IMG/VR virus record: IMGVR_UViG_3300042908_001045
Span: 22,306-86,305 of that record
Source of the DNA: a virus
Strand: one strand, 5' to 3'
DNA length: 64,000 nt
The position numbers were made by a program, and so were the translations under genes. The notes under the pieces were generated by a model. The model was not told the origin of the DNA, made no database searches, and worked only from the letters and a program-made list of their open reading frames with translations. Shown here one piece after another: positions 22,283 through 64,000 of the stretch (positions within the stretch are counted from its first letter, which is position 1; each line of letters begins with the position of its first letter).

Positions 22283-22389
22283 AGAAAAAATTCTGAGGGC
22301 AAGAAAATGAAAGATGTAGATTATCCTGAAAGACCTAGATAAAATATAGTAGTAGTAGTTTTTAGCTTCCCCTTGGAAGCTATTGTTTT

Positions 22390-38425: not shown

Positions 38426-38772
38426 TATACGGACTCCGTCCAGTCAGATAAGCTGTTGTCAAAGAATATTGCTCTAACTCTTACGTAATAATTACCTGGT
38501 TGTATATTTTCGAAAGTAGTAAACAAATCTGTAGTTGTTCTAGTTTGCTCCCAAATTCCTTCTTGTCCTTTTTTGATTTCTGCTACATAGCCTATTACCC
38601 AAGGAGATACAGCATTATCTAATAATGGTTGTTGCCAAGACGCAAAAACGTTAAATAAATCAACTTCTACAATCGTAGGAATTCGTATACTAGATAAACT
38701 TATGTTTCTTGGACTAGCATTAGCGTTTGGAAGTGCTGTCTTAACTGGTAAATTATCAAATTCCCAAGTCAT
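38425..38772 (-). CDS. Stand-alone fibronectin type III domain protein A
   Basis: Paralog of 37988..38425; both start MTWEFD. Confidence 0.75.
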   Translation of the reverse strand: MTWEFDNLPVKTALPNANASPRNISLSSIRIPTIVEVDLFNVFASWQQPLLDNAVSPWVIGYVAEIKKGQEGIWEQTRTTTDLFTTFENIQPGNYYVRVRAIFFDNSLSDWTESV

Positions 38773-40709
38773 ACCATTCTCATCTCATCAATAAAAGTAT
38801 ATTTACTATCATCATACTCTGCTGCTGTAATTTCATGCATACCTTCTATTGTTTCAGTTACAGGAACTCTGTTAATTACTCTGTATTTTTTAGGTTTAAC
38901 GCTAGTTCCGGATAATATCCAGTTAGACTCAGGAAGTGGAATCATAGGAAAATTTGAAGATACTACAATCGTTGATATATCGCTTCCTGCCCCAGTAACT
39001 ACAGTTCTTTCCACCGCTGTTCCATTGCTTAAAGTAACACTGATTTTGTAAGACTCTCCTGAAATTAACGTTACTGGACTATCTAGCGTAACAGTGTTTT
39101 CTGTGGCTGCTTTGATTAATCCTCCATATCTCATCTCTACTCTTTGTGAATCTAAAATATTAATTACGTCTCCTGGTTTAATAAATGCAGCGTAAGCCCT
39201 AGCTTTAAAAATAACTGTTTCTTGTTCTAGTCTATCTCCCATTAAAATAGCTACTCCAGCTCGCCTTGCTTGTCCTCTAGAAGTACATGCAATTGCTTCT
39301 ACTTCTAGTTCTTTAATACCCCATTTCTGAATGCCGATAGGGTCTTCTACTACTTCTACTGTTTTCCTATAAAAATCATTTGGGTTAAGCCAGCTAACTA
39401 ATGCTATTGTTTTTTTACTTTTTAATCCAGTTCTAGCATAAGTAAACAAGCCTTCTTCTACATCAGCTTGCGTAAATTGATATGAAACATTTGTTGGCTT
39501 GTCAGCGACGAATGTTATCGCACCAGATTGCCAATAGCTAAATCCTCTAAAAATTGTTATTAAAGATTGCAATACTTGGTACGCTTCTGTTTTACTCTGT
39601 AAAGCTATATTGCATTGAAATCTATGTTCTGTACCACCGTATCCATCTGGTACTAATCCATTGCAATACTGGCTAATCTCATATAATCCCCACTTATCTA
39701 TTTGCCCAATATCAATATAGTCTCCAAGCCCATATCTTGTGTTTGTTAGTAAATCATAAAGAATCCATGCTGGATCAGAAACAGCAAGAGTTGAGTAAAT
39801 AAAACTTCCGTTCCAAGTTCCACTGTATGTTAATCCTCTTTGCGCTGTGACAGTAGCATTACTGGGTATTCTAATAAGCATGCCAAAAACTTTAAAAGCA
39901 GCTGTAGGAATAGATGAAAAGCCACTAGTATTAAATCCAAACGCAGCTATAGCAGTGTTGGGATAACGTAAAGTAGTTGAATTTATTTTTGTGTATCCAA
40001 TCCATTGCATTTGACGTTGATAACCTTGCTGCTGGGTTTCTTCATTGTCTACTGTAAAATTTTGCACTCTTAATGTTAAAGAAGATAATGTATTTGCAGG
40101 GACAGGAATTGCGTAGTCAAACTCAGTAGGAGACGGAAATCTACCACCTATCGTAGTAGATAAAACAGTCACAAAAGCATTGTTATCTTGTTTTAATGAA
40201 ATTGCAAAACTTAAATCTGCGCCAGTGGTATCTCCATTATCTGGATTAATTCGTTGTAGTTGAAAAGAAAACTTAAAAATTATTAAATTTAGTAAAGTTT
40301 CACCTGGTTGAATAAATATGGTTTTATTAACACCATTTGGAATTGATTGTAAAACTTGAGCTGAGACTGATTCTGGAGAAGCAACCTGATCAAATCCTGG
40401 AATTTCTGTTATAGCTGCTTGTGTTTGAGTGCCAGTTCTATATCCAAATTGAAAATCTTTAAAGTTTAAACTTCCATCATTGTTTTCTATAGGAGTTTCA
40501 TCAAGAAAAACATTTCGTAAAGGATTTGAGCCTAATCCTTCTATAGTGCCTTCACAAATAGCTCCAAGAATATAAGCAGAAGCAACACTTCTTCCAGTTG
40601 GTTTTTGAATGCTTGGTTTACCACCGCCTTTACCGCCGCCTTTACCGCCGCCTCCACCGCCGCCTCCACCTTGCCCAAATATTTTAATTTCTTTCTTTTT
40701 TTTAACCAT
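38769..40709 (-). CDS. Host specificity / central tail tip protein, lambda gpJ-like
   Basis: CEGTIEG, YRTGTQTQ, YPNTA, DPAWILYDLLTNTRYGLG, IDKWGLYEISQYC, ACTSRGQARRAG. Confidence 0.92.
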   Translation of the reverse strand: MVKKKKEIKIFGQGGGGGGGGGKGGGKGGGKPSIQKPTGRSVASAYILGAICEGTIEGLGSNPLRNVFLDETPIENNDGSLNFKDFQFGYRTGTQTQAAITEIPGFDQVASPESVSAQVLQSIPNGVNKTIFIQPGETLLNLIIFKFSFQLQRINPDNGDTTGADLSFAISLKQDNNAFVTVLSTTIGGRFPSPTEFDYAIPVPANTLSSLTLRVQNFTVDNEETQQQGYQRQMQWIGYTKINSTTLRYPNTAIAAFGFNTSGFSSIPTAAFKVFGMLIRIPSNATVTAQRGLTYSGTWNGSFIYSTLAVSDPAWILYDLLTNTRYGLGDYIDIGQIDKWGLYEISQYCNGLVPDGYGGTEHRFQCNIALQSKTEAYQVLQSLITIFRGFSYWQSGAITFVADKPTNVSYQFTQADVEEGLFTYARTGLKSKKTIALVSWLNPNDFYRKTVEVVEDPIGIQKWGIKELEVEAIACTSRGQARRAGVAILMGDRLEQETVIFKARAYAAFIKPGDVINILDSQRVEMRYGGLIKAATENTVTLDSPVTLISGESYKISVTLSNGTAVERTVVTGAGSDISTIVVSSNFPMIPLPESNWILSGTSVKPKKYRVINRVPVTETIEGMHEITAAEYDDSKYTFIDEMRMV

Positions 40710-41318: not shown

Positions 41319-41649
41319 GAGTTATCCAACCATTCCTTTTATTCCCAGCTGGGATAATACAAAAACAGAACAATCAAATTTGATTGTAACTAAGTTTTTG
41401 CCTAATGCTGTTGAAGCAAGGGCATTTAAGACCAAAATTAATACCACAAATGTTACTTTCGCCGTGTCTGGAAATATTACAAATGCAACTGAAGTGGACA
41501 ATTTTCTAAGACAGCGTAATGGGAAAGCATTTAAAATAGAAGGTAGCGACGAACTATATCATTGCACAGAATGGACAGTGCAAATATTAGCAGATAATGT
41601 AAATGCGTTTTCTGCAACATTTGAACAAGTAAGGAGTTTTGCAACATGA
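41317..41649 (+). CDS. Minor tail protein, lambda gpM-like paralog B
   Basis: MSYPT...VDNFLRQRNGKAF...YHCTEW...FSATFEQV; ATGA-coupled to gpL. Real start is ATG 41317 (track extends it to 41206). Confidence 0.8.
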   Translation: MSYPTIPFIPSWDNTKTEQSNLIVTKFLPNAVEARAFKTKINTTNVTFAVSGNITNATEVDNFLRQRNGKAFKIEGSDELYHCTEWTVQILADNVNAFSATFEQVRSFAT

Positions 41650-42353
41650 TTCCAAATTTAATGACATTAAACCCTGATGCTTTTATAGAATTATATGAAG
41701 TGTATAAATACGATTTAAATGACAAAAATAAAGAAGAAGGAGACCCATCTATTAAAACAATTAGAATTTGTAATGTTGGCATCGATGAAGACAGTCCGTG
41801 GGTAAATTTCGAAGGAGATAAATATTATGCTATTGGCTGTCAAGGAGAAGGATTTGACTTAATTGGACAAGGAGCTATCCCAACTCCAAGTTTAACTGTA
41901 TCAAACGTTGGTGGTATATTGACTGCTTGGCTAAAGCAAAGTAGACAACCTGGTTACAGGCTAGAAGGAACTTTAGTTAAAAGACATGTGACCCAAAAAC
42001 GGTTTTTAGATGGACAAATTGATGCAGGCGCTGGAGTAAAAGAGTTGCCTGTACAAACTTACGTAATTGAACAATTAACAGAAGAAAACTACAATAACGC
42101 CAAGTTCAGATTAGGGTCTCCTTTTGATGTTGAGGGAATCACTTTGCCAGCTAGAGTAATGGTGCGTAAATGTACTTGGATATATCGCAGTTCTGAATGT
42201 GGATACGCAGGCAGTGCTAAATACACAATAACTAACCAGCCTACTAATGACAGTAATGCTGACATTTGTGCAAAAACTTTAGCAGCTTGTAAATTAAGAT
42301 TTCCAGGACAACCTTTACCGTACGGTGGGTTTCCTGGATTAAATACTTACTAA
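41646..42353 (+). CDS. Minor tail protein, lambda gpL-like
   Basis: IELYE, PTPSLTVSN, RFLDG, CTWIYRSSECGY...C.K.L.AC.LRF..LPYGGFPG (Fe-S cysteines). Confidence 0.92.
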   Translation: MIPNLMTLNPDAFIELYEVYKYDLNDKNKEEGDPSIKTIRICNVGIDEDSPWVNFEGDKYYAIGCQGEGFDLIGQGAIPTPSLTVSNVGGILTAWLKQSRQPGYRLEGTLVKRHVTQKRFLDGQIDAGAGVKELPVQTYVIEQLTEENYNNAKFRLGSPFDVEGITLPARVMVRKCTWIYRSSECGYAGSAKYTITNQPTNDSNADICAKTLAACKLRFPGQPLPYGGFPGLNTY

Positions 42354-45158: not shown

Positions 45159-46964
45159 ATGGCATTAACACTTTTTAGGAAAAAACCACAACAACACAAG
45201 CAATTTGTGTTAAGCCCAAGCATTTTGTATCAGCTAATATTAGTTGGCTTTTTAACTGTTGCTCCAGCTGCAACTAGTTGGAGGCAACTGAAAGAAATCC
45301 GGCTTGGGTCTTCTGCAATAGCAGTTTTATATTCTATAGCTTTGTTGAGTAAAACACAAAGCCAAATTGATGAAGCTGATAGACTGACCATGGAAAAAGA
45401 GCATTATAGAACTGCTTATTATAATGCTTCTGGTAGAAAATATGAGGAATTAGAAGCGACGTTAATTCCAGTTGAACCATTGGCATTGCCAGAACAAAAA
45501 TCTCATCCACTAGAGCAAGCACTTTTCAATCTCGGTGTTGAAGCCAATGTTTTAGAGGAAGTTGACTCACCTAGCTTCACTAGAGTTAAAATAACACCTA
45601 GTAGTAAAGTGCCATTTAGTAAAGTAGCTGGATTAGGTGACACATTGCAGGTTAGCCAAGGATATGAGAATACTCCATTGATAACGCCTCAGAAAGGACA
45701 TATTGCTATTGATATTCCAAAATCAAGTCAAGAGCGTAAATTCTGCGAATATTCTGACTATTCTGGATATTTAAATAGCAATTCATTCACTGTTCCAATT
45801 GGAGTTAATATTGACAACAACTTAGTTGAAGTTGATTTATCATCTCCGGTTTCAGCACATTTGCTAGTAGCTGGAAGTACTGGAGGAGGAAAAAGCGAGT
45901 GGATGATAGCAGCCATTTGTAGCTTACTTACTAGGTTTAATTCAAGTGAAGTTCAACTATATTTAGTAGACCCTAAGTTAGTTGAATTTACCAAGTTTCA
46001 AGACTATCAACAAGTAACATTGATTGATAGAACTGAGATGGCTATTCAAACATTAAAAGTGTTGTGTAATACCATGCAAGAAAGATATGAACTATTCAGG
46101 AGAAGTCGGTATAAAGATTTGGCTGAATACAATAGATACCATTCAAAATTACCAAGAATAGTTATCTTTTTTGATGAATTTAGTGCTTTTGTTTGCGGAG
46201 AATCTAAAAACGAATTCAACGCAGCACTAGCAGAGATTGCACAGAGAGGTAGAAGTGCTGGATTACACTTAATCTTAGCTACACAACGCCCTGATGCAAA
46301 TGTAGTTACACCATTGATACGCAGCAACATTACTGCGAGAGTGGCGTTCAAGACTATTCAATCTCAGGACAGTAAAATTATTCTTGGAGCAGAGATTGGA
46401 GGTTTTGATTCTAGTAAATTACTAGGCAAAGGAGACTTGATTTTTACTAATGGAGGAAACGTTCAAAGACTGCAAGGATTGTATGTTAATGATTGCAATT
46501 TATTATTAGCAAATGTTGATACCAAAGTATTAACAAATGAGGCTTCACCATGGAGCAACGAGGGGCTTCACCCATATTCAAGAGAAGCTAGTGAGGAAGA
46601 TACAGGTGAAGCTATTAGTCCTTTAGCTGAAATGCCGTCAAATCAAGGTTTTATGCAACCAAGTTCCAAAATACTATCATTGGTGAAGCTAAAAATAGCA
46701 GAACTAAAGTCTGAGTCAGTTGATGCTACAGAGCCGTTATTTAATGAAATTTGGGGGTTAACGACAGAAGAGAAGCTAGTAGCACTCAGATATTTATTAA
46801 ACCAAAAAATAGGCAAAGAAAATGCAATTTCTATTCTATGGAATCGCAGTTCAGGAGGTAAACATCATTCCAGATATCAAGATTGTTCTAATACTTATGA
46901 AGCCATGATTACTGCTTTAAAACAACAAGGATTTTCTAATGAAAATTGTTGGGGATTTAATTAA
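45159..46964 (+). CDS. FtsK/SpoIIIE (TraB-like) DNA translocase with N-terminal TM segments
   Basis: HLLVAGSTGGGKS, LVDPKLVEF, IVIFFDEF, IAQRGRSAGLHLILATQRP, IRSNITARVAF, LLGKGDL. Confidence 0.92.
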   Translation: MALTLFRKKPQQHKQFVLSPSILYQLILVGFLTVAPAATSWRQLKEIRLGSSAIAVLYSIALLSKTQSQIDEADRLTMEKEHYRTAYYNASGRKYEELEATLIPVEPLALPEQKSHPLEQALFNLGVEANVLEEVDSPSFTRVKITPSSKVPFSKVAGLGDTLQVSQGYENTPLITPQKGHIAIDIPKSSQERKFCEYSDYSGYLNSNSFTVPIGVNIDNNLVEVDLSSPVSAHLLVAGSTGGGKSEWMIAAICSLLTRFNSSEVQLYLVDPKLVEFTKFQDYQQVTLIDRTEMAIQTLKVLCNTMQERYELFRRSRYKDLAEYNRYHSKLPRIVIFFDEFSAFVCGESKNEFNAALAEIAQRGRSAGLHLILATQRPDANVVTPLIRSNITARVAFKTIQSQDSKIILGAEIGGFDSSKLLGKGDLIFTNGGNVQRLQGLYVNDCNLLLANVDTKVLTNEASPWSNEGLHPYSREASEEDTGEAISPLAEMPSNQGFMQPSSKILSLVKLKIAELKSESVDATEPLFNEIWGLTTEEKLVALRYLLNQKIGKENAISILWNRSSGGKHHSRYQDCSNTYEAMITALKQQGFSNENCWGFN

Positions 46965-49195: not shown

Positions 49196-52100
49196 TTAAC
49201 GTTTTGGAATTGTTCCACCTTGTCTTTGCTGGCGTTGAATTTCATTTAACACAGCAGATTGTACGGCAGACCTTAATTGACTTGCATCTAATCCATTAGA
49301 AGATGCATTATTACCATTAGATTCAATGTTGATAGGAATATTAACAACATTGCTATTAGAAGTATTTTCAGTATTAATTGTTGGTGCTACTCCTGCATTT
49401 ACAACACCGCCACTCGAATAATTCATAGTTCTGTGAAATTGCTTTTCCTCTGGAGATACAACACCGCCACTCGAATATGTTCTTATCTTTTCTACAATTC
49501 CACCATCTGCATGAAATTGCTTTTCCTCTGGAGATACAACACCGCCACTCGAATATGTTCTTATCTTTTCTACAATTCCACCATCTGCATAATTTCTTAT
49601 TTCAGAACTGCCATTGCCTTTCATGTAATTATTTGTTCTGTTAAATTGCCGCTCTTCTATTAAAGCGTTTGAAGATACAACACCACCATCTGAATATGTT
49701 TTTATCTTTTCTATAATCCCGCCATCTGCATAATTTCCTATTTCAGAACTGCCATTGCCCTTCATGTAATTATTTGTTCTGTTGAATCGCCGCTCTTCTA
49801 GCAAAACGTTATAGTCAATTACTCTATGCAATCCAGCATCTTCAAATCTCTTATTCTGTTCTACTGTTAATACTCTCTCTCCTGGCGTTAATACTGCAAG
49901 CACTGGTTTTATGCCACCATTAGCTGATTTTTCTTTTAGAACAGCTTGGTTAATTGATTGGATAATTCCACCGCCTGCATAGTTAGGCACAACTCCAGTA
50001 CTGGTTACTTCTCCTCCGGTAAATGCTGTTGATGCTTTCTTGCCACCACCTCCAAACAATCCTCCAATTGCAGAAAACAATCCTCCAAGTAATCCACCTT
50101 CTCCTACTAATGATTGAAGCAGCATCTTAATAGCCATGTTAATGAGTCCGCTTAGTATGCTATTAGCTAAATTACCAAGGACATCATTCAGTGTTCTTAC
50201 GCCCATAATCACATCAGTAAATCCAGAAGATAAATCGTTAATTAGATTATCTGTCACGAGTTGTTTCATAGTAGACAGTATGTCTTTGTTAGCATCTCTA
50301 ATGCTTTTTACTCTTTCCTCATATTCAGCAGTATATTGACCTTCTCTTTCATTAAATTGTTCTTGAGTCATTTTTCCTGCGCTAACTTCAATCTTAGCCT
50401 CCTCAATCTTTTTGTCTCTTTCCTTAGCTGCTTGTTGTATTTCCAAATCTCGTTGCATCCGATTAGCCACAAATTCATTACCACCTCCACTTCTATACCT
50501 GCTTATTTGAGAAGACTTTATAGAATCTGTTATAGCTGTGGAGGCATCTGTAAATGCTTTAGCTCTGTCTGCCTCAAGTTTTTTTATTTGCTCTAATTTT
50601 AAATTTTCGCTTTTTTCAATCAAAGCTGTTCTTTCTTTTTCTGAAAGCAATATACTAGTTTTGATTTCTTCCTGTTTAATTGCTGTTATTTTTACAATCT
50701 CATCCATTTTCTGTGTAAATTCGTTTAAGCTATAAGCATAATCAACAGAATTTATTAAATCTCTTTTTTGATATTCTAAATCTACTTGTGTTTTATTTTC
50801 ATTTGCTTTATCAATTTCAAATTGAGATTGATTTTGCATTCTTTTTATTCTAGTAATTTCTCTATAATTCTCTATTCTTGCATTTGCATCTGTTGATGTT
50901 AATAGTCCTTTTGACTCCAACTCTTTTGTGTTTAATTCATATTGCGCTAAAGCATCTTCAATCTGAAGTTTCCTCTCTTCAAATTGCAGTTCTGGCACTG
51001 AACGAATATTTAAGAATTGCATTTGGTTAAATGGCGTAAGTCCTTTGGTAAAAGAATCTTGTGTTACAGGAAAATAAGCATTTCCTTGGAATTCGTAGTC
51101 TTTTGAATCGAGATCGAGCCCAAATTCGTGTCTATTAGCTTTCATTTGCAAGCCATTAAATCTTGGCTCTTTAAGGTTTGCTGTTGGTTTATTTAGGTCT
51201 GTGATTAACTGAAAAGCTGACAAAGCATTATTTAATTGCGTTTTTCGACTAGTATTATTTTTAGTATCGGTTTCAAATTTTGCTATATCTAAATTATATT
51301 GTTCAGTATCTTGTTTATATTTGGCATATTGTTCTTGAGATAACGTAGTTAGTAATTCTGGGGTAGAATAAATTTTGGACAGCCTTTGATGTTCTTTATG
51401 CAACCTTTCCTTTTCTTGGGTTGTACTATTTGTTATTTCCTTAATAGAATTGCCTATATGTTCTACTAGTAATTCTTGTGACGTAAAAATATTTGGATTA
51501 TTCTCTAGATTAATGTCTCGATCAGATATTTCTATAAAAGAACCTGGATTTGCTGATTCCTGTAATTCTATTTTTACCCCATACTCTCCTATCTCTTTAT
51601 TTTTTTGACTTACATCTAATTCAGCTTGTCTTAAAACATTATCCGAATCTCTTATTTTAGATCTATTCTCATACTCTCTTCTAAGCCTAGACATTGCTTT
51701 AGTTAATTTAATCCTTTCTTCAATTTCTTTCTTTTGAACGTCTATCGACTTCAAGGTAGTATTTAAAGTTGCTATATCCACTTTGAATTGAGAAGCTAAT
51801 TGTTGTTCGTCTTTGTTAAGGCGATCTAGATATTTCTCTCTTTGTTTTACATCTGTGATTTGCTCAAGCCCTTTCCTAAGTGGGTTAAACAAAGCTAACG
51901 TATCAGTTAATTTACCATCGGTTCCTTTTACAAAGGATTGCCTAAGATTATTTAATCTCTCTTGGATATCTTGTCTTGTATCATTTAACCTATTAAGAGT
52001 TTCGGTTAACTTTATGCTTTCGGGTGTTAGTGGATCAGGTAATTTATCAGGAGAATATTCGTTAAGTATGTCAGAAAAAGATCTTGTTAAACTATTAGTG

Positions 52101-55100
52101 GAATCCCTAGATTCTCTGATTGTTTTTCTAGTATTTTTAAAGAAATTATCAAGATTACGAATAACTGATGCCTCATTTTGTTTCCTTAAAGCTTCAGCAC
52201 GCTGTTTATTTGCCTCATCTTGTTGTTTAAGAATCTCTTCTCTTTGTTTTTGAGAATCTGCGACAGCACCAGTGTTTACGCCAGCAGATGAAGGGGTAGA
52301 TGAAGCAGAAGAAGTCGCATTTATACGGTTTATAGAACTAGTTATATATTTAGCTGGATTTATTTGTATTCCATTTTCTTTTATTTCTATGTGGGCGTGA
52401 GGTCCCCTGCTGTTCCCTGTATTACCTACTGTCGCTATTTGTTCTCCAGCTTTAACTTGTTGCCCAACCGTGGCAAGTGTTGAGTCTAAATGTGCAATTA
52501 ATATTTCTAATTTCTTATTGTCTACCAAATGTTCTACTTGAATATATTTCCCCCATCCACCAGGCTGATTACCAATGTTTGAAATTTTACCGTCAAAACT
52601 AGCAACAACGGGAGTACCAACTGGGGCTGCATAATCAACTCCTTGGTGCATTCTACCCCTTCTCATCCCGTATCCACTTGTAAAAGTAGAATTTCCTGCT
52701 ACTGGATGAATTATGTTAGACGCGTTTTGTGATACGTTAGATGCATTTTGTGAAAAACCAAACAAGCTAGACAAAGAAGAAAAGACATTCTGAATATTGT
52801 TAGGGTTAGATGAATTACTAGATGTTGAAGAGCTGTTAGTAGGAGTTGATGGAGTAGGTGTTGTATTGGAATAAGGGTCTATTTTTATGCCCGCAGATTT
52901 TTCTAGCAAGTCAACAGTTTGTTGCAAGCTAACATTCATATTAGAAACAGACTCGTTAGTTTTTATCATGTTTTCATTTAATTTTTCAGTGTTTTTATTA
53001 GCCTCCCCTGACTCTTTAACAGTTTGTTGAGTCTGTTCGGTTACTTTTGCTGCTGATGCTCTAACTGTGTTTATTAAAGCCTCTAGTTCTTTACTTGATT
53101 GCGTAAAGGCTTCTTTCATATCAGATTCAATATCTTCTGTGACTCCAATAATATCTTTACCAGAAGGTAATGTTTCAATAAGATCTTTTGCTTCTATTTG
53201 ACTATCTTTGATTCTATTTTTAAAATCTAAACTAGTTCTTTCAGTATCTATTTGCCCTAAAGCGGTCTGATTTAATTGCTCTATAATAGATACCAGCCCA
53301 TCTATATATCTAGTAAACTCAGTGTCTCCTAATCCAGTTAAAGCTTCATTAATTTTGGTCTTAAAATTAGCGTTTTGTATTTCTTGGTTAGCTTTTTTAA
53401 TCTCTAATCGCCCTTGATCTATCTCTCTAGTAACAGAACGAACGTAATCATCTACTTGTTTTTGCTGTTGTTCCAAAGCTTGTTTTAAATCGTATTTAGA
53501 CTTGGCAATTTCGGCTTTCCCCGCAGCTAATTCACCTGCATCATTCTGAACTTGATCACGCAATTCTTTTATTTGATCTTTAACATCAGTAGTAAGAAGC
53601 GTTTGCGGAATTAATGACAAAGTGTCTAGAGAAGCCTTTCGCATTGTTAATATTCTAGATAACCCTCTAACTTTTTGTTCTCCAGAAATAATCCCAGATT
53701 GCATTATGGCGTTGTTAATGTCGCCAGAGTTAGCCCCAGAGGAATATATGCGTTCACTTCTCATTGACGATGTCCTGCCTATTGCAGCAGAAAACTTTTC
53801 GTAAGCCGATTGAAATCTGTTTAACGCAGTAACAGTTTTTTGGTAAATACTTTCAAGTGGATTGGTCGGAAGATTTTGAGACACAATCTTCTTGGCTTCT
53901 TCAGCACCAGCTTTAAGCTCTTCTACTAATTTTCTGTATTTAGGGCGTACTGCCTCTGGTATAGAATCAATAGATGATTCAAACTGTTTTACAGTTTCCT
54001 CCATGACTGCAACTTGATCTTTAATGTCATCAAGTCCCTTCGTTTTTTCTTTAAATCTATCGGTTTTAGCTTTTATTTCTTTATCAATTTCAGCTACTTT
54101 TTTAATGTCTTCCGGTTTTTTGCTAGAAGATATTTTTGCCCTTTGCAGAGATAAAGCCATTATTTCAGCATTTATCCTGTTTGCATCCTCAATGGATTTT
54201 TTTACCGCAGGATTTGACAATAACTTACTTTTGGTTTCTTCAGTAAGTCCTATGTCTTTTGCTTTAGTCTTAAACCCTTTAAGATTCTTATCTAAATTTT
54301 CAAAATTTTCTAGTACTTGTTGTGTTCCCAAAGTAATATCATAATCTGAATCTGCTACAAGTCCTGTTAGCCCATATTGCTGTATAATAGCTTTTTGATT
54401 ATTAGTAAGTTTTTTGTTTGCTGATGGAGTTCCACCAATTGGTGTTCTCATCCAGTCGCCAGAAGCTTCAGCTTGCCTACCTTGCAAAACTTCTTTGTAT
54501 TTCATTTTTTCAAGAATACCTAAGTCTTTTTCACTTATTTCGCCTCTTAATGCTTTATTGACATTTTTAACAAAATCGTCTGTAGTATATCCTTTATTTT
54601 TAAATCCAAGAGCAAATAAAATATCTAGCTGCAATCCTTTTGATGGAATTGAGTCTGCAATAGATTTAATGCTTGTCCCTACATTACTGCTGATATTACT
54701 TGTATTTTGAAGGCTTTTATTCATTCCATCAATAGTATTTGTAATGCTATTCAAAGAACCATTAATAGCAGAAGCCATTTTATCCATGGACTGTTGAACA
54801 GGATTAGAAAAATCACTTTTAGATAATAAAAGTATGCCTATTGCTAATATAGCTTCCGCTAACAAAGTAGCTAAAGATTTAGCGGCTTTACCCACATTAG
54901 CCAACATCTGAGGTAAATTTGTTGCTGATTGAGCCACAGAAGAAAGAGCAGCTTTAAAAACCGTAAAAGCACTAGATAAAGCTGTCAAAATTGGTCCGGC
55001 TAATTGAACAGCTAAAGAACGTATTTGTCCAAGAACTAGTGTTAATGCTATAAACTCTAAAACTCCAGAAGGAATCATCTTAAACAAGTTAGTTAAAGAT

Positions 55101-58100
55101 TCTATAAGCGATTGAAAAGGATTACTAGAAACTTCTTTGCCAATAATTACTGATAAAAGTCCTTCTCCTGTAAATTGTTGTTTAATTTGATTTACCGTAG
55201 TAACAATCATAGCCATATAATTTTTAAAACTGTCAGCTATAATTTGAAATGGGTTATGCTCAGCGAACATAGATGCAACTCCCGCCATTATATGAGGTGC
55301 TGCAACTGAAAAAACAGAAGTAATTAGTGGAGCTATTCCAGCAGTCAACAAACCAACAAAACTAGTTGCCCAAGCAGCTATTGGAGTAGATTTAAGCAAA
55401 AATGTTAATCCAGTTGTCATTAAAGCCGCAGCTCCAATAAAGAAAGAACCAACAGCTTTTAGCGCTAAATCAAAAGAATTACTTATTAGTTGTGCAAATC
55501 CAGTAACTACATTGGTAATTCCAGCTAATGTGCCAGAAAACGCGTTAATTATCTTAAAGCTAATTTCAGTTGCAATATTTTCTAGTTTTACTAATGCAAC
55601 AGCAAAACTATCTCCAGTGTCGGAAGAACCTTTAAAGTCAGTTTTTAATACTTTCGCCACTTTTGGCAATACTTCTTCCGATAACAATGCGCCTTGCTTA
55701 GACAACTCAGTTACTTCTGCAACAGAAACACCTAAAGCTTTAGCAAATACTTGCATTGCAGGGGGAAATCGCTCTCCTAACTGCTGCCTTAATTCTTCCA
55801 TTGAAATTTTGCCTTTAGAGAGCATTTGAGTATATGCCATGAAGACAAGACTAGCATCCGCAGTTCCAAGCCCCATACTAGCAATAGACTGGTTAATTCC
55901 CTCAAATAATTCTTTAGCTCCTTTGCCTTCCAACTTTGTCCCTTTGGCTGCGGCAGCTATTTTACCGTAGGCATCTATTGCACTTTCTGCTGGAACTCCT
56001 ATTTGCTTTGCAGATTGAAGTGCATAATCTGTTTCCATTATAGCGCCCTGTTTACTACCAGAAGTAAATTCAAGACGTTTTTGCATTGGTTCAAGTTTTT
56101 GGAAAAGTTGTACAAACTTTTCAAATTGAGTAATTGCAACAAAAATAGCACCACCAACTGCTAAGAAAAGAGGAGCTAAACTTTGAACCATTTTTGCAAT
56201 TCCACCAATACTCCCATCTTGAGAGTCAAACGAAAACAAACCTTTAAAAGAATCAAATAACTGCTCCATTAAAGGTTTTTGTGCTGTTTCAAATTGCTGT
56301 TTGGCATCTGCAATAATTTGGCGTACATCCAGCCCTTGTGATTTGCCTGCTTTTATACTATCTGCAAATATTTTACCAACTTCTTTCATTGCTTCTTTTT
56401 CATTTACAAACCCTCCAGATTTGTATTTCTGAGCAAATGTTTGTAACTGCTTATCTATAGCGTCTCTTTGTGCTATTAGTTGTTGTCGTTGAGCAGCTGA
56501 TGTCGCAGGATTTGATATTAACTTATTAATTGTCTTCTTGTATTGTTCAGATATTTTGTGGGAAGAATATACCAAGGAAGCCATCGCGCCATTTTCAAAG
56601 CCTTTACCAAAGTCAAGTCCGATTGACTCCATAATTTTTGAAGGAGAACTAATTTTAAGCACAGATTTGACCTTGGTAATTATAGACTTAAAAATGTTTC
56701 CAACAGGCTCAAATCCTTTTTTTAAATTAGTAGCACCTGCCAAAAAACCTTCAGAGACACTTGTGCCAATTAATTTAAAATTGTTAAATACATGACTAGA
56801 TGTTATTTTAGGTATTAAGTTTTTTACTAGATTTTTGTCAGGCAAAACAAAATTTTCAGAAGAGTTATTGCTTTTCAAAAATGTATTTTTAAAGGATAAA
56901 ACTACATTTTTGACGAAATTATTTAATTCAGGAATTTTATTTTTAAGTCCTATTATTAAACCTTGTATAAATTTTTCCCCAATATCTATAGCGACTGTAG
57001 ACGGAGATTTGATGCCCAACTCTGATTGAACGCCTTTTTTAAATTTTTTACCCGCTTCCTTGCCTACTTTGTCCATGTCGGCGACACCAGACTTCATGCC
57101 TTTAACAACTTCTTTGCCAGTATTATTAAGATTTGCTGCGTCAGAAACTTTGATTTCATCAAATTTATCCGATGCTTTTACTACAGTTCTCGCTGTGGTG
57201 CCTTGTACTTTTAATGAGTCCCTAATCATATCAGGAGAGGACATATTTTCAAAATCTTTCCCCTTAAATCCTGAAGAACTATTTTTCATTTCTGCACTTA
57301 CACCAGTAAAGTAGTCGTCCTGTATCATTTTTGTTAGAAATGTATCAAACTCTTCTCTATTATATTTTCCTTCTTCTAGTTTTCTTCTTAATTCGTAAAT
57401 AGGTACTAATCCTTGATAATCTCCTTGAGTATCTAGTTTTGTGAATAAATTTGCAATGTCTTTTTTAAATGTGTTATACGAGTGTTGTGATGTTTTAGAT
57501 ATTTCTTCAAAAGACTTCTTTTTAAGCATTCCTAGATGCTGGGATTCTAGGGAAAAATGTGTTCTAGTAAAGCCACCGGGTTTAATAGCAGCTTCTTGTT
57601 CTTGTGGAGTAGCACCACTGTCTTGATATAGCCTAAAATAATCATCACCTTGCATATCCGACAAATATTGCTCAATTTGCGCTTGAGAATACCTTTTATC
57701 AGGCAACATTGTTTTAAGTTGATGAATGGACATAGAACCACCATCACTTAAATCTTCTCCAATATTGAGTTCCCTATATAAACCTAAAGCATCTTTTTTG
57801 AATTGATCGTACGTAGGTTGTATTTCAGTTTTGGAAATAGGTTTAGGAGCAGGAGCAGGCTTGGGAGCAGGAGCAGGCTTGGGAGCAGGAGTAGGCTTAG
57901 AAGAACTTTTTGCTATTGTTTTAGCATTGTTTTTATTATCTTCATTAATTTTTTGATAAGTACTTTTTAAATCGTTAGAAACATCAGCATAAGATTTTTC
58001 CGCATTATTTATCATTTTTGCTATTTTAGATATTTCTTCTACTGTTGCTCCAGTGCTTTTAGCTTTTTCTTTTAGGTTTTTAAGTGCTTCTAAATTTTCT

Positions 58101-59924
58101 TCTGACATTTTTTTGTAGTTAATAAAAACATTTTTAAAAGCAGTAAAATCCTTAGAGATAAGTAGTTTAGAACCGGTTTCTAATGCAATAGCGGATTGTT
58201 TTTGGTAATCGACAAGTAGCTTTGCAGCTTCTTTGTTAATTATCTTAGCTTCATCTGTTGCTTTAGGTACTGGCGCTACAACAGGTGGTGCAGTTACGAC
58301 AGGTGGTGCAGTTACGATAGGTGGTGCAGTTACGATAGGTGGTGCAGTTACGATAGGTGGTGCAGTTACGATAGGTGGTGCAATTTCATCAAACTTATCT
58401 GATGCCTTTACTACAGTTCTCGCTGTGGTGCCTTGTACTTTCAATGAATCCCTAATCATATCAGGGGAAGACATATTCTCAAAATCTTTCCCTTTAAATC
58501 CTGACGAGCTATTTTTCATTTCTGCACTTATACCAGTGAAGTAGTCATCTTGTATCATTTTTGTTAAAAATGTGTCAAACTCTTCCCTGCTATACTTTCC
58601 TTCTTCTAGCTTCCTTCTTAATTCGTAAATAGGTACTAGTCCTTGATGATCTCCTTGCGTATCTAGTTTTGTAAACAAGTCTGCAATGTCTTTTTTGAAC
58701 GTGTTATAAGAATGTTGCGATGTTTTAGATATCTCTTCAAAAGACTTCTTTTTAAGCATCCCTAAATGCTGGGATTCCAAGGAAAAATGTGTTCTAGTAA
58801 AGCCACCAGGCTTAATAGCAGCTTCTTGTTCTTGTGGAGTAGCACCACTGTCTTGATATAATCTAAAATAATCATCACCTTGCATATCCGACAAATATTG
58901 CTCAATTTGCGCTTGAGAATATCTTTTATCAGGCAACATTGTTTTAAGTTGATGAATGGACATAAAACCACCATCACTCAAATCTTCTCCAATATTGAGT
59001 TCCCTATATAAACCTAAAGCATCTTTTTTGAATTGATCATAAGTTGGTTCTACTTCCGCTTGCTTACTTTTCTTAGGAGTTGTGGCTGTTTTCTTTGCTT
59101 TTATTTTTGGTGTTTCTGGTATTTTCTCCTCTTTTATTTTTGGTGCTTCTAGTATTTTCTCCTCTTTTATTTTTGGTGCTTCTGGTATTTTCTCCTCTTT
59201 TATTTTTGGTGGTTGCACTGTTTTTTTAACTGTTTCCGCGCTTTCTTGTTTAATTTTTTGGTAATTTTCTTTTAATGTTTCAGATGTTTGATTATAAGAT
59301 TGTTGCATCTTGTTAATAGCATCAACTACCTGGTTTAGCTCTTCTGCCGCTGCTCCAATATTCTTAGCTTTATTCTGCAATTCATTAAGAGCATTAATGT
59401 TAATATTTAATATCTCTTTGTATTTTATAAAAACATTTTTAAACTCTGAAAAGTTTTTAGATTTAAGTAATTTTAAACCAGCTTCTTGTATTTCTTTAGA
59501 TTGTTTTTCATACTCAGCTAATAGAGCGCTAGATTCTTCAGACAAGTTAAGACTAGCAGCCGCTGCCGCAGAAATATCCTCTTTGATTTCTTCATAACTT
59601 GTTGATTGGTTTTTCTTTTTGGATTTACCTGTATTTGCAGACTGTTTTTTAGCTTTAGGTTTTTTCTCCTTTTTAAGTTTAGTTAACTCTAAATTTTGAA
59701 AATCTTTTTCATCTGTATTTAAAGGGTTATCTACGTCTGTACCTACAGGTTTATCTGTTTGCATCAAGAAAAACCATTGATAAATATAATCATCAGGAAT
59801 TCCCGCATCAAGCTGTTCAGCAGTATATTGATTTGTTTCTTGTATAGTCCCTAAATCAAGTTTATCAGCTTTTTGTAAACGAAACAAAGCAGCATCTAAT
59901 TCTTTTCTCCTAATATGTTTTAAT
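49196..59924 (-). CDS. Tape measure protein, C-terminal part (tape-measure domain, M23 peptidase)
   Basis: SKGKISMEELRQQLGE tape domain (~55650..56090); M23 HQGVD...HLD...GNTGNSRGPHAHIE (~52350..52710); LGIKSPS motifs; YAGGG...LTPGERVL C-terminus. Track start 59887 is an internal TTG. Confidence 0.9.
57153..59045 (-). repeat. ~660-bp duplicated block plus Pro-rich microrepeats in the tape measure gene
   Basis: YDQFKKDALG...KASDKFDEI occurs twice; APP(I/V)VT 18-bp units (~58281..58381); PAPK units (~57840..57900). Confidence 0.9.
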
Positions 59925-61820
59925 GAAATATTGGTAAATAATTTTCTGTACCTAGTTCTTCATCTAATTCTCTAATTACTTTAAGTACTTCATCATCACT
60001 AATCGTGTTTTCTAAAACTTTTTTGGCTTCAGAGAGAGGAGGTGTCGTAGAATTAGAGGTTGCTGTTCCTGGTATTTTTTTCTGTAATGATTGTATAAAG
60101 AATAAAGGCCCATCCGCCATTTGAGGTATCCCTGCACTAATTTGCTCTGGCGTATAAGCACTATATTCACTTAATGAATCCAAATCAATCTTATTTGCTT
60201 TTTGCAATCGATATAAAGCTTTCTCTAGTTCTTTTTTATCAATATTTAATTTGTCTTGTAAGTGGAAAATAGGTAAATAATTTTCTGTTCCTAATTGTGT
60301 ATCTAAATCTTCGATAATTTCTAATATTTCATCATCTGTTATATCAATTGCTTTAGATACATTTGAAGCAGCTGTTTTAATTTCTGAGCCTGCTACTTTG
60401 TCTTGATTAGTTTGTTGTGAAGGAGCTATTTTAATTTGAAGACGTTGAAGCAGTAGTGTTTTAGATTCACTGTATTTTCTATTTAAATTTTCAATTACTT
60501 TTGATATTAAGTTTGCTTCTTCTGGTGATTTCATGTTTTTAATTAATTTATCAACAGAAGCAAAAGTATTGTTAGCAAGTTTTTCGTAATTAACCATTAA
60601 CTTGCTAAAGCCTGTCATATCGCTAGACTCAATTAATCTTAGTGCTTCTTCTTGAAAGTCTACTAAACTTTTTTCTTGTTGAGCAAGAATAGCACTAGAA
60701 CTAGATAATGGGTTAGATTTCTTATTAGAAGTTTGTTTTTTAGCTTTAGGTTTTTTCTCTTTTTTAGGTTTAGTTAACTCTAAATTTTGAAAATCTTTTT
60801 TATCTGTATTTAAGGGGTTATCTACGTCTGTACCTACAGGTTTATCTGTTTGCATCAAGAAAAACCATTGATAAATATAATCATCAGGAATTCCTGCATC
60901 AAGCTGTTCAGCAGTATATTGATTTGTTTCTTGTATAGTCCCTAAATCAAGTTTATCAGCTTTTTGTAAACGAAACAAAGCAGCATCTAATTCTTTTCTC
61001 CTAATATGTTTTAATTTATCTCTAAGATGAAATATTGGTAAATAATTTTCTGTACCTAGTTCTTCATCTAATTCTCTAATTACTTTAAGTACTTCATCAT
61101 CACTAATCGTGTTTTCTAAAACTTTTTCAGCTTCAGAGAGAGGAGGTGTCGTAGAATTAGAGGTTGCTGTTCCTGGTATTTTTTTCTGTAATGATTGTAT
61201 AAAGAATAAAGGCCCATCCGCTATTTGAGGTATCCCTGCACTAATTTGCTCTGGCGTATAAGCACTATATTCACTTAACGAATCTAAATCAATCTTATTT
61301 GCTTTTTGCAATCGATATAAAGCTTTCTCTAGTTCTTTCCTGTTAATGTTTAATTTGTCTTGTAGGTGGAAAATAGGTAAATAATTTTCTGTTCCTAGCT
61401 GTATGTCTAAATCTTCAATAATTGCTAATATTTCATCATCTGTTATATCAATTGCTTTAGATACATTTAAAGCAACTGTTTTAATTTCTGAGCCTGCTAC
61501 TTTGTCTTGATTGACTTGCTGTGGAGGAGCTATTTTAATTTGAAGACGCTGGAGTAGTAGTGTCTTAGACTCACTATATTTTCTATTTAAATTTTCAATT
61601 ACTTTTGATATTAAGTTCGCTTCTTCTGGTGATTTTATGTTTTTAACTAACTTATCAACAGAAGCAAAAGTATTGCTAGCAAGTTTTTCGTAATTAACCA
61701 TTAACTTGCTAAAGCCTGCCATATCGCTAGACTCAATCAGTTTTAATGCATCTTCTTGAAAGCCTACTAAATTTTTCTCTTGTTGAGCGAGAATAGCACT
61801 AGAACTAGATAATGGATTAG
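59650..61820 (-). repeat. ~1.1-kb tandem duplication inside the tape measure gene
   Basis: Offset 1104 bp (e.g. 59925 vs 61029); near-identical DNA. Confidence 0.9.
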
Positions 61821-62847
61821 TTTTTTTATTAAGAGTTTGTGTTTGCGAAGGCTGAGAGATGTTTTTAGCTTTAGTCTTTGATTTTGTAAATTGGCTCTTG
61901 GCTGCTGTTATTTTAGTTTTTTGTTCAGCTGTAGCAAATGTTTTTAGGCTATCTAGTTCTTTATGTAATTGTCCAATAAAAGCATTATATTGTTCAATAG
62001 AAATAGTTTGTAACTGTATTTGGTTAAAATACTCTTGCTGCTCTTTTTTAAGAGTTTCAATTTGTTGAATTACATTATTTGGACTCTGAAAAGCTGACGC
62101 AACCGCAGAGTTTTTAGTGTTTTTTGTTTTAGAAGTTTTTGTCTTTGGAGTTGACGATTGATTAACAATTTCAGTCGAAGCAACTGTTTCTAAAGAAACC
62201 TCTTTTGCTAAAATTTCTTTAATTTTTTTACCTGCTTTTTTAATTCTGGGTAATTCGTTTTGTATCCCTATTTCTACCCCTTCAACATATTTTTTACCTG
62301 CATCAATTCCAGATGTTGCAGGTGAACGTATACCAAGCTCTGTTTCAACTGCTTTTTTTAGTTTTTTACCTGCTATCTTGCCAACATCATCAATTGTATT
62401 AATTCCAGTTTTTACGCCCTCTAAAAATTGATGTCCAGTCTCTTTACCATCCGTCTTACTACTTGTCCCAGTAGATGATTTTTGACTACTTTTAGTTGTT
62501 TTACTTTCTTTAACGATTAAATCAACTTGTATTGTATTTTTTTGTCTTTTTAACCCAGCTAATTTATAACTTAAATCTGTTAATGCTTTGTCATTTACAA
62601 ATACGGTTAAGGGAGTTTGTTTTAGATACTTGTTAAGATTGTCGATATGTTCTTTCTTTTTGTCTAAATGCTTATTTAATTTATTTAAAGCAGAGTCATC
62701 AACTTTAATAGAAATTTTTTTAAATTTTAAGTTTTGCTCAATCTCTTTAACTGACGACTGAACAGATTTTTTAGCATTAGCTAATGTTTGCTCAAACTTA
62801 TCAGAGTCTAAGGATAATTGAACTATTAATTCACCTAAATTAGCCAT
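59920..62847 (-). CDS. Tape measure protein, N-terminal part (frameshifted from the downstream part)
   Basis: MANLGELIVQLSLD is a typical TMP start at 62847; ELGIRSP motif; 1104-bp tandem duplication whose second copy lacks 13 bp. Confidence 0.85.
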   Translation of the reverse strand: MANLGELIVQLSLDSDKFEQTLANAKKSVQSSVKEIEQNLKFKKISIKVDDSALNKLNKHLDKKKEHIDNLNKYLKQTPLTVFVNDKALTDLSYKLAGLKRQKNTIQVDLIVKESKTTKSSQKSSTGTSSKTDGKETGHQFLEGVKTGINTIDDVGKIAGKKLKKAVETELGIRSPATSGIDAGKKYVEGVEIGIQNELPRIKKAGKKIKEILAKEVSLETVASTEIVNQSSTPKTKTSKTKNTKNSAVASAFQSPNNVIQQIETLKKEQQEYFNQIQLQTISIEQYNAFIGQLHKELDSLKTFATAEQKTKITAAKSQFTKSKTKAKNISQPSQTQTLNKKTNPLSSSSAILAQQEKNLVGFQEDALKLIESSDMAGFSKLMVNYEKLASNTFASVDKLVKNIKSPEEANLISKVIENLNRKYSESKTLLLQRLQIKIAPPQQVNQDKVAGSEIKTVALNVSKAIDITDDEILAIIEDLDIQLGTENYLPIFHLQDKLNINRKELEKALYRLQKANKIDLDSLSEYSAYTPEQISAGIPQIADGPLFFIQSLQKKIPGTATSNSTTPPLSEAEKVLENTISDDEVLKVIRELDEELGTENYLPIFHLRDKLKHIRRKELDAALFRLQKADKLDLGTIQETNQYTAEQLDAGIPDDYIYQWFFLMQTDKPVGTDVDNPLNTDKKDFQNLELTKPKKEKKPKAKKQTSNKKSNPLSSSSAILAQQEKSLVDFQEEALRLIESSDMTGFSKLMVNYEKLANNTFASVDKLIKNMKSPEEANLISKVIENLNRKYSESKTLLLQRLQIKIAPSQQTNQDKVAGSEIKTAASNVSKAIDITDDEILEIIEDLDTQLGTENYLPIFHLQDKLNIDKKELEKALYRLQKANKIDLDSLSEYSAYTPEQISAGIPQMADGPLFFIQSLQKKIPGTATSNSTTPPLSEAKKVLENTISDDEVLKVIRELDEELGTENYLPIFH

Positions 62848-62903
62848 AATTTCACCAATTGTATATATACAATATTGCCAAAACAAAAGCCGTTTATCAA
62901 TAA

Positions 62904-63467
62904 ATGCTATCACAAGAACTCTCCCCACATAGGGGACAGATAATAGGATTAGCGGCGTATTTGAATTTCCGGTTTGCTGCTAGAGACTTCTTATCTGAAG
63001 TATTAGCATACAAGCTAAGAATTAGAGTTGTGTTAAGAGACGGACCGGACATAGGGATAGTGAGATTCAACAAAGATGTAGAAATAATACTAACAGAATA
63101 CATGACGATAAAAGAGATGATAACAGTACCCGACTGGTTTGCAAAAATCAAGAGAAACGCTAGTAAACAGCGTTTCTGGGTGGGAGACGATTATATAGTC
63201 TCCTACTTTTGGAATCCAGAGATAGGGCAAGTAGTGGAATCAATGGACGATCGACGCAACGGACTGAATGCCGTTGATCGCTATAAATCCAAAGAGCTAG
63301 GCAGTGATGAAGCTGCTGTCCTGGCACAAATTCAATTAAGACTTGGCGAGAAAGAAGCCAAGATAGCGGCTAAAACGAGTATTCTGAATGCGTATGATGA
63401 ATACGTGCTTGACAGACAGAAGCGCTCGTTACCTGTTAAGAGCTTTGAAAAATGGGCAGCAAAATAA
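62904..63467 (+). CDS. Hypothetical protein
   Basis: 187-aa ORF divergent from the tape measure gene. Confidence 0.65.
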   Translation: MLSQELSPHRGQIIGLAAYLNFRFAARDFLSEVLAYKLRIRVVLRDGPDIGIVRFNKDVEIILTEYMTIKEMITVPDWFAKIKRNASKQRFWVGDDYIVSYFWNPEIGQVVESMDDRRNGLNAVDRYKSKELGSDEAAVLAQIQLRLGEKEAKIAAKTSILNAYDEYVLDRQKRSLPVKSFEKWAAK

Positions 63468-63839: not shown

Positions 63840-63954
63840 AGTTTTGCTGTAAAGCACTTTTTTGTTGATTTGACAAGAAGTTTAAGAGTTAAAAGTTGTA
63901 ATTTGGATTAGCTGTAAAGCACTTTTGTATCCAAAACTTTTTTCTCTAAACTAC

Positions 63955-63983
63955 TTGACGGTAAAATAAAAGTAGTTTATGAT
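63955..63983 (+). promoter_or_regulatory. Sigma70-type promoter for a gene beyond the window
   Basis: CTTGACG-17 nt-TATGAT followed by AAGGAG. Confidence 0.6.
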
Positions 63984-64000
63984 AAAGGAGTAGTTGAGAG

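Follow-up and report, generated by a model that had tools for sequence, protein, structure and literature searches.

RcaD-like winged-helix units in the tape measure protein of a freshwater cyanophage

Introduction

Why would the tape measure protein (TMP) of a phage tail carry, several times over, a domain that also ends a protein of cyanobacterial chromosomes? The question is raised by IMG/VR virus record IMGVR_UViG_3300042908_001045, of which we analyzed positions 22,306 to 86,305 (64,000 nucleotides of one strand, hereafter the window). A preliminary description of this DNA had reported eight host-like winged-helix units, four of a type A and four of a type B, in a giant TMP encoded there, and had proposed that the TMP delivers them at infection to escort DNA, to alter host transcription or to jam a host ATPase or defence complex. 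Here we report that the A units correspond to the C-terminal domain of cyanobacterial RcaD proteins, whose genes stand in an operon with an ATPase and a translocase-nuclease fusion, and that the B units may be assigned to a phage branch of the same superfamily. Among the functions proposed for the units, a decoy that jams a host ATPase or defence complex is the idea that fits best, and we put it forward as a possible explanation that still falls short of a probable one.

The A units correspond to the C-terminal domain of host RcaD

All eight units were found where the preliminary description had placed them, at 57158-61446 on the minus strand, with the linkers and helical spacers that it had described (Table 1). 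The A motif (DDE[IV]L...LGTENYLPIFHL...AGIP) begins at residues 497, 610, 865 and 978 of the upstream one of two reading frames into which the TMP gene is divided in this record, and the B motif (Y[DN][QT]FKKD) begins at residues 283, 394, 693 and 804 of the downstream frame. Between the units lie helical spacers of about 120 aa and linkers made of Pro, Lys and Ala (PKIKEEKI, APPIVT and PAPK types), and the whole cargo is flanked by two copies of a segment of the ELGIxSPS type. The eight units reduce to four distinct ones (A1, A2, B1 and B2), each doubled by tandem duplication of blocks consisting of a spacer plus a pair, the A block repeating with a period of 1104/1091 nt and the B block with one of 1230 nt.

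A search with a single A unit returned 717 protein matches at 55-69% identity, nearly all of them from cyanobacteria, about 280 aa long and annotated as 'transcription factor RcaD', and the alignment extended from the start of the unit to the extreme C-terminus of RcaD (the last ~88 residues). The earlier statement that type A matches the C-terminal domain of RcaD-annotated proteins was thus borne out from end to end. Scanning one genome per species gave 272 matching loci, all cyanobacterial, and the A unit was not found in 50,697 phage records. Twenty-seven alignment columns are invariant across phage and host; of the 46 positions with a conservation of 90% or more among 85 hosts, A1 retains 39 and A2 retains 34. 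Compared with RcaD of Calothrix/Fremyella PCC 7601 and its orthologues, the A units keep the LGTENYLPIFHL and YTPEQ..AGIP motifs and the same acidic charge, but only the C-terminal domain was copied, and the units are internal to a TMP rather than part of a ~280-aa protein with a mostly basic N-terminal part whose gene is followed by rcaG.

Both phage A types have lost the Gln-Pro-Pro (QPP) turn of the host domain, a common loss that suggests a single capture with later duplication. A quick tree placed the two types with Aphanizomenonaceae and Cylindrospermum (SH-aLRT 91, which is not decisive); their stems measure 0.63 and 0.74 substitutions per site, the host median being 0.04. The A pair would thus derive from the C-terminal domain of RcaD in a host, probably an Aphanizomenonaceae-like planktonic member of the Nostocales. 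Relatives of the A unit of 54-174 aa were considered as stand-alone phage proteins and rejected, as they are mostly RcaD fragments on contig ends. NCBIfam contains no model for RcaD, A or B, and PADLOC returned nothing meaningful for RcaD.

The B units form a phage family related to RcaD

The preliminary description had traced type B to genes neighbouring rcaD, and this did not hold. In the 10-kb flanks of 79 host rcaD loci, B2 matched the RcaD C-terminal domain alone and B1 matched nothing; the relatives of B are phage proteins. A HMMER search of 1.84 billion representative sequences yielded only 19 of them (best E = 2e-15 across both units), several covering both units, and these proteins of 270-670 aa have a Lys/Ala/Pro-rich linker followed by two C-terminal units. 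Proteins with such a pair are encoded at 12 loci on IMG/VR viral contigs. In one of these (L087) the gene stands directly after the head protease and major capsid genes, and the N-terminal part of its product matches a 'minor head protein' PHROG, as do neighbouring paralogues. Another IMG/VR protein with a B pair has a Dps-like N-terminal part, and ORF078R of Planktothrix phage PaV-LD, which is not mentioned in the CL131 supplements, is a family member located at the same position in the head module. Judging from these gene neighbourhoods, proteins of the virion (head) gene modules repeatedly have the B pair as their variable end.

When the B family was aligned with the RcaD C-terminal domain by hhalign, the two were linked with 96.3% probability (E = 1.9e-9) over 126 columns, including a TP(D/E)(K/Q) motif after the wing, and the B profile matched 85 host RcaD proteins at about 1e-13. 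On the strength of this link and of these profile matches, we assign all eight units to one superfamily with a host-like branch (A) and a divergent, older phage branch (B).

Two further observations concern proteins outside the TMP. In L087 (728-13623) and L088-L098, neighbouring phage proteins have in common an N-terminal module with a CxxGxxCGxxC motif and a match to the 'minor head protein' PHROG, and vary in their C-terminal parts, one of which is a B-B pair; they look like a common targeting module with exchangeable cargo. A 3923-aa protein labelled as coming from the crinoid Antedon mediterranea contains seven stretches that are weakly B-like (E = 1.2e-5), which could reflect contamination, horizontal transfer or low-complexity noise.

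The tape measure gene is interrupted in the duplicated A block

The identification of the gene product as a TMP was upheld by a TMP_3 match of 90 bits and by homology to the annotated TMPs of the phages Cr-LKS4 (2987 aa) and CrV-01T (4416 aa), to which the TMP body is 33-34% identical over ~1400 residues. The cargo units are located ahead of the TMP_3 core and the M23 peptidase domain. The single protein of ~4,550 aa that had been read earlier is in this record encoded by two frames, which join inside the fourth A unit. At the break copy 1 of the A block reads TTTCATCTTAGAGATAAATTAAAACAT and copy 2 reads TTTCATTAAAACAT; copy 2 shows a 13-nt deletion (CTTAGAGATAAAT on the coding strand) that creates a TAA, and the upstream frame terminates there. 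As the fourth A unit is disrupted by it, seven of the eight units remain whole. Programmed frameshifting at this point was rejected, as inspection revealed no slippery heptamer at TTTCATTAA.

These features raise the possibility that the second A block and the frameshift are an artefact of assembly or consensus calling, or belong to a defective variant, and that the functional phage has fewer units in one unbroken gene. A TMP split in this way, with a second part lacking a start codon, should be lethal, and an IMG/VR relative, IMGVR_UViG_3300046777_002580, which is 99% identical to this phage at the TMP C-terminus, encodes its TMP without a break: the open frame spans 4195 codons, the TMP frame has a length of about 4170 aa, and it contains a single A block besides the two B blocks (2 A and 4 B units). 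The 13 nt are also present in every contig that crosses the break in three lake metagenomes. At 11 of 12 variant sites, however, these contigs have the letters of copy 1, and they therefore neither confirm nor refute a deletion in copy 2. In two of those metagenome runs, moreover, contigs continue into the junction of the A-block duplication (window 60704-60733), and the two copies have diverged synonymously (synonymous substitutions per site, dS, 0.21) with a ratio of nonsynonymous to synonymous substitution (dN/dS) of 0.11. Because of these differences we conclude, from the substitution pattern, that the A-block duplication is real and under selection. The 13-nt deletion itself would be either a recent private lesion or an error. 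Taking the evidence together, we regard the artefact or defective-variant explanation of the second block and its frameshift as evenly balanced.

The units are predicted winged helices, mostly acidic like the host domain

AlphaFold2 modelled the units with an alpha-alpha-alpha-beta-beta order of elements, at a predicted local distance difference test score (pLDDT) of 70 for A1-A2 and of 85 for B1-B2 (predicted template modelling score 0.71). Foldseek and a wide VIA search with the models returned winged-helix proteins exclusively, including ScpB, winged-helix modules of Pol III and TFIIIC, the cullin WHB domain, MarR-type regulators, the Rpa2 winged helix and Z-alpha; no match was outstanding, and the VIA Z scores, at most 8.2, are generic. 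According to these models both types are winged helices, in agreement with the preliminary description.

A winged-helix fold is what one would expect if the units bound nucleic acid, either holding or protecting the leading end of the genome or changing transcription through contacts with host DNA or with nucleic acid in the Z form. Sequence comparison points the same way: the one named family that A matches is Z-alpha (PF02295; E = 1e-4 to the poxvirus domain of PDB 1sfu), and the Pfam z-alpha model scores 28.5 bits on the four-copy frame. Z-alpha domains contact Z-DNA through an Asn and a Tyr of helix 3 and a Pro-Pro-x-Trp wing (N173, Y177, P192, P193 and W195 in ADAR1). The A unit has in common with the Z-alpha domains of ADAR1, ZBP1 and poxvirus E3L/34L the helix-3 pattern L-Y-x-L-Q-K, but in the alignment with 1sfu the Asn is replaced by Glu in A1 and by Asp in A2, the Tyr is kept in A1 and is Phe in A2, and no Pro-Pro-x-Trp wing is present in the A units, which are acidic. 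Single units, furthermore, score 16.1 and 15.8 bits against a cutoff of 21. Given the subthreshold scores, the exchanged Asn and the missing wing, we do not classify the A units as Z-alpha domains.

The charge of the units also speaks against nucleic-acid binding. The C-terminal domain of RcaD is acidic in every host checked (net charge -5 to -10, isoelectric point, pI, about 4.4), and the rest of the protein, its N-terminal part, is basic in eight of ten hosts (pI about 9.1-9.7) and near neutral in the other two. The phage units have net charges of -8 (A1), -7 (A2), -6 (B1) and -1 (B2, which is weakly acidic with a pI of 5.8); the pI of the host domain and of the phage A and B1 units is 4.2-5.0. 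Since the phage copied only the acidic domain of RcaD and not its basic N-terminal part, the acidic charge points to protein binding and not to DNA binding. RcaD binds the cpc2 promoter and its Lyngbya homologue binds an unrelated promoter, with the C-terminal region thought to be involved and with RcaG as an ATPase thought to help binding (PMC2799420), which would favour a nucleic-acid ligand; these data fit a general DNA-recognition subunit as well as a specific regulator. The DNA-escort and DNA-binding roles envisaged earlier are weakened by the acidity of the host domain and of the phage A and B1 units, and we consider nucleic-acid binding improbable.

Selection on the units and the variable cargo slot

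If the units merely served the construction of the tail, they might space out or plug the lumen, offer docking sites to chaperones or to the unusual tail-tube paralogues, or modulate tail length, and their resemblance to a host protein would be accidental. Their position between TMP-like helical spacers agrees with such a role, as does the A copy number, which is 2 in one and 4 in the other of two near-identical phages, and giant TMPs (2987 and 4416 aa) are normal in this phage group. The corresponding slot of the Cr-LKS4 TMP (OQ625504.1, residues ~290-790) is filled with three tandem copies of an unrelated unit of ~65 aa and one probable B-like unit (hhalign 81%, E = 1.2e-5), spaced by Lys/Pro/Glu linkers; Pfam gave nothing usable for the slot repeats or for ORF078R of PaV-LD. 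Because the content of the slot differs in Cr-LKS4 and CrV-01T has no such units, we take the N-terminal third of the TMP, from these alignments, to hold a variable cargo slot that is not a fixed part of the ruler. A search for further proteins of 2100-6800 aa with the cargo region yielded none, but it missed the downstream frame of the window as well and is therefore uninformative.

The pattern of substitutions is at odds with a purely structural role. The B duplicates have dN/dS values of 0.018 (at dS 0.25) and 0.021 (at dS 0.72), compared with 0.38 (at dS 1.19) for the adjoining spacer, values that indicate strong purifying selection on the B duplicates; the spacers are free to evolve and the units are not. 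Selection, moreover, keeps the positions that are conserved in host RcaD and not just the fold, and proteins that have no connection with tails, those of the head module and those fused to Dps, contain the B pair as well. We therefore give little credence to a role confined to tail structure or assembly. Between this phage and its close relative (L080; compared over window 57100-62000), dS ranged from 0.01 to 0.33 between cargo modules, against a dS of 0.03 for the TMP body, with dN/dS low throughout the cargo region, which is the pattern expected of a recombination mosaic of shuffled modules.

The host rcaD operon encodes a predicted translocase-nuclease system

The preliminary description had placed rcaD in an ATPase-linked locus, and this was confirmed by the 79 host loci (L001-L079): in all but one, the gene after rcaD, on the same strand, encodes RcaG, an ATPase of ~690 aa of the AAA_16/KAP type (AAA_16 2e-10, KAP 1e-6; the orc1/cdc6 model TIGR02928 reached only 1.9e-4, far below its cutoff). 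The third gene, present in 62 of the 65 loci whose downstream flank is long enough to show it, encodes a fusion of ~850 aa that joins a DnaQ-like 3'-5' exonuclease, a PD-(D/E)XK nuclease, FtsK-alpha and FtsK-SpoIIIE. In one such protein of 846 aa the matches were FtsK_SpoIIIE 2e-38, FtsK_alpha 2e-10, PDDEXK_1 3e-11 and DNA_pol_A_exo1 8e-32, and PADLOC matched the FtsK part to the SspH C-terminus (4e-64) and to mad8 (1e-29). A ParA-like gene often comes next after the fusion gene (for example in L037, 9416-16040). By its gene content the rcaD operon looks like a translocase-nuclease system and not like a pigment regulon.

Systems predicted to counter invaders combine an Orc/Cdc6-type ATPase and nucleases of the restriction endonuclease (REase) fold with a 'captured' HerA/FtsK domain and sometimes FtsK-alpha (PMC10853773). 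In this class the Orc/Cdc6-type ATPase has an inactive REase inserted and ends in a winged helix-turn-helix (wHTH) domain. The composition of the cyanobacterial operon fits the class, with RcaD as a candidate subunit made of several wHTH domains. Like those systems and DndFGH, it comprises an AAA+ ATPase, a REase-fold nuclease, FtsK-alpha and FtsK, a fused 3'-5' exonuclease and a separate multi-wHTH protein. Unlike the systems of PMC10853773, it is syntenic, single-copy and not visibly mobile. The affinity of its ATPase to Orc/Cdc6 is weak. PADLOC found no sequence match between RcaD and the DndG or SspB models. RcaD occurs in 42 of 301 sampled Cyanobacteriota genomes, almost always in a single copy, and its operon is flanked in a conserved order by glycosyltransferase genes upstream and by genes for ParA and isoleucyl-tRNA synthetase (IleRS) downstream.

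A decoy against the RcaD system as the favoured explanation

TMPs leave the tail at infection, and their N-terminal part lies nearest the DNA end (lambda, T5 and SPP1). Starting from the observed homology, fold, charge, selection and host operon, we infer a mode of delivery, a binding partner and an anti-defence effect. As expected from the biology of TMPs, the protein would bring its cargo into the cell immediately before the genome enters. The units would act there as protein-binding mimics of the RcaD C-terminal domain and could occupy the docking site of that domain on RcaG, on the FtsK-nuclease or on RcaD itself, by which DNA recognition would be uncoupled from the translocase-nuclease before phage genes are expressed. 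A protein decoy delivered by the TMP against the RcaD system is tentatively our preferred explanation. The more specific proposal, that this syringe-borne decoy disables a host translocase-nuclease and that RcaD, the 'chromatic adaptation transcription factor', forms with RcaG the DNA-recognition part of an FtsK-nuclease machine directed at invaders and of wide occurrence among filamentous cyanobacteria, is in our view doubtful.

Several points weigh against the decoy. The synteny and the single copy of the rcaD operon make it resemble a core function more closely than a mobile island of defence genes, and its defence role is a published class prediction that is matched here by domain content. 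RcaD has been seen as a DNA-binding factor, and its C-terminal region has been guessed to bind DNA (PMC2799420). A or B units were not found in the TMP of CrV-01T, which is equally giant (4416 aa), so that by this comparison the cargo units would not be needed by the phage group in general. Finally, folded domains must either fit into the narrow lumen of the tail or unfold there.

The phage also encodes an FtsK/SpoIIIE-like protein (window 45159-46964, plus strand). In three Nostocales genomes it came closest to the FtsK region encoded by the third rcaD-operon gene, with an identity of 39-40% (E 1e-65 to 1e-68), whereas the next best match reached 34%. By homology, therefore, the phage contains relatives of two different parts of one host operon, the RcaD C-terminal domain and FtsK; an RcaG-like gene was not found when the phage open reading frames (ORFs) were compared with those of the host loci. 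This similarity is what would recommend an alternative in which the RcaD-type domain docks an FtsK-type translocase, the host's or the membrane-borne one of the phage, to the entering TMP and DNA end, but we consider such recruitment highly improbable, and no less so the further step in which the motor draws the genome inside or moves it on to neighbouring cells, as ~40% identity is ordinary for FtsK motors and establishes no specific link, the phage motor would be absent at entry unless packaged, and nothing shows the RcaD C-terminal domain touching an FtsK domain.

TMPs with embedded enzymes and anti-restriction proteins packaged in the head are already known. The TMPs of mycobacteriophages such as TM4 contain host-like Rpf-like and peptidoglycan-hydrolase motifs, and P1 (DarA, DarB and Hdf) and T4 (IPI*) package anti-restriction proteins in the virion. 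The mycobacteriophage TMPs likewise include a small host-related module that is presumed to act on entry; those modules, however, are cell-wall enzymes acting in the envelope, whereas the units described here are non-enzymatic winged helices that come from a cytoplasmic DNA system and number up to eight. The Dar proteins and IPI* are delivered with the DNA and act before phage gene expression, as proposed here for the cargo units, but they are separate head-packaged proteins with demonstrated targets, while the cargo is part of a TMP and its target is deduced. In a limited search of the full-text literature we found no report of winged-helix or RcaD-like units, or of a repeated domain of a host DNA system, in a TMP.

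If the decoy explanation is correct, it would represent a new route for the delivery of anti-defence factors, and RcaD and RcaG, annotated as pigment regulators for 20 years, would be reassigned to a translocase-nuclease system of bloom-forming Nostocales and Oscillatoriales. The interest of the locus lies mainly in a cargo that is host-derived, multi-copy and strongly selected, and in what it implies for RcaD and RcaG. The idea can be tested, as the lineage is present in many lake metagenomes and has a cultured relative, Cr-LKS4, which grows on Cylindrospermopsis/Raphidiopsis.

The phage and the setting of the tape measure gene

The virus record is linear, with 86,305 bp and 35% G+C, and the window is its right-hand 64 kb. 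Perfect inverted terminal repeats of 127 bp are found at both genome ends (genome bases 1-127 and window 63874-64000), which suggests protein-primed or telomere-type replication and not cos or pac ends. The large terminase is 69% identical to those of the Cylindrospermopsis phages CrV-01T (RM-2018a) and Cr-LKS4, and the studied stretch was detected in 20 metagenome runs of lakes or other fresh waters, which belong to 16 studies; on account of these terminase relatives and this occurrence we classify the phage as a siphovirus-type cyanophage of planktonic Nostocales. The features of the TMP gene and its surroundings are collected in Table 1.

Table 1. Features of the tape measure gene, its cargo region and a nearby tail gene (window positions).
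Feature	Position	Strand	Remarks
Upstream TMP frame	59920..62847	-	Open 59920-62928, start MANLGEL at 62847; 975-aa protein in public collection
Spacer S1 copy 1	61456..61821	-	Helical, upstream of A pair
A1	61174..61446	-	Acidic winged helix (predicted), RcaD C-terminal type
A2	60835..61107	-	Winged helix (predicted), RcaD C-terminal type; 55% identical to A1
Spacer S1 copy 2	60352..60717	-	Duplication junction ~60704-60733
A3	60070..60342	-	A1 duplicate, dS 0.21, dN/dS 0.11
A4	59759..60003	-	A2 duplicate, interrupted by 13-nt deletion
Frame break	59920..59925	-	13 nt, CTTAGAGATAAAT on coding strand, missing relative to copy 1; result TTTCATTAA
Downstream TMP frame	49196..59887	-	3563 codons; without own start; carries on the fourth A unit in another frame
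Spacer S2	59213..59590	-	Helical, weak TMP_3-like similarity
PKIKEEKIPEx linker	59056..59220	-	Encoded by 33-nt tandem repeats
B1	58763..59047	-	Phage-type winged helix (predicted), first of tandem pair
B2	58388..58714	-	Phage-type winged helix (predicted); profile-level alignment to RcaD C-terminal domain
Spacer S2 copy 2	57908..58285	-	Strongly diverged from first copy, dN/dS 0.38
B3	57533..57817	-	B1 duplicate, dS 0.25, dN/dS 0.018
B4	57158..57484	-	B2 duplicate, dS 0.72, dN/dS 0.021
TMP_3 (PF20155) core	55565..56119	-	90.4 bits, cutoff 41; residues 1257-1441 of downstream frame
Peptidase M23 domain of TMP	52355..52654	-	90 bits
J-like tail protein	38769-40709	-	Tail gene near TMP

A ParA of the phage was considered as a link to the ParA gene adjacent to the host operon and rejected, its identity of only 28-30% being generic similarity. 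The minus-strand tail genes, those for the TMP and the J-like protein, are split by a block of plus-strand genes that includes minor tail protein L (window 41646-42353), the FtsK-like protein and a dCTP deaminase.

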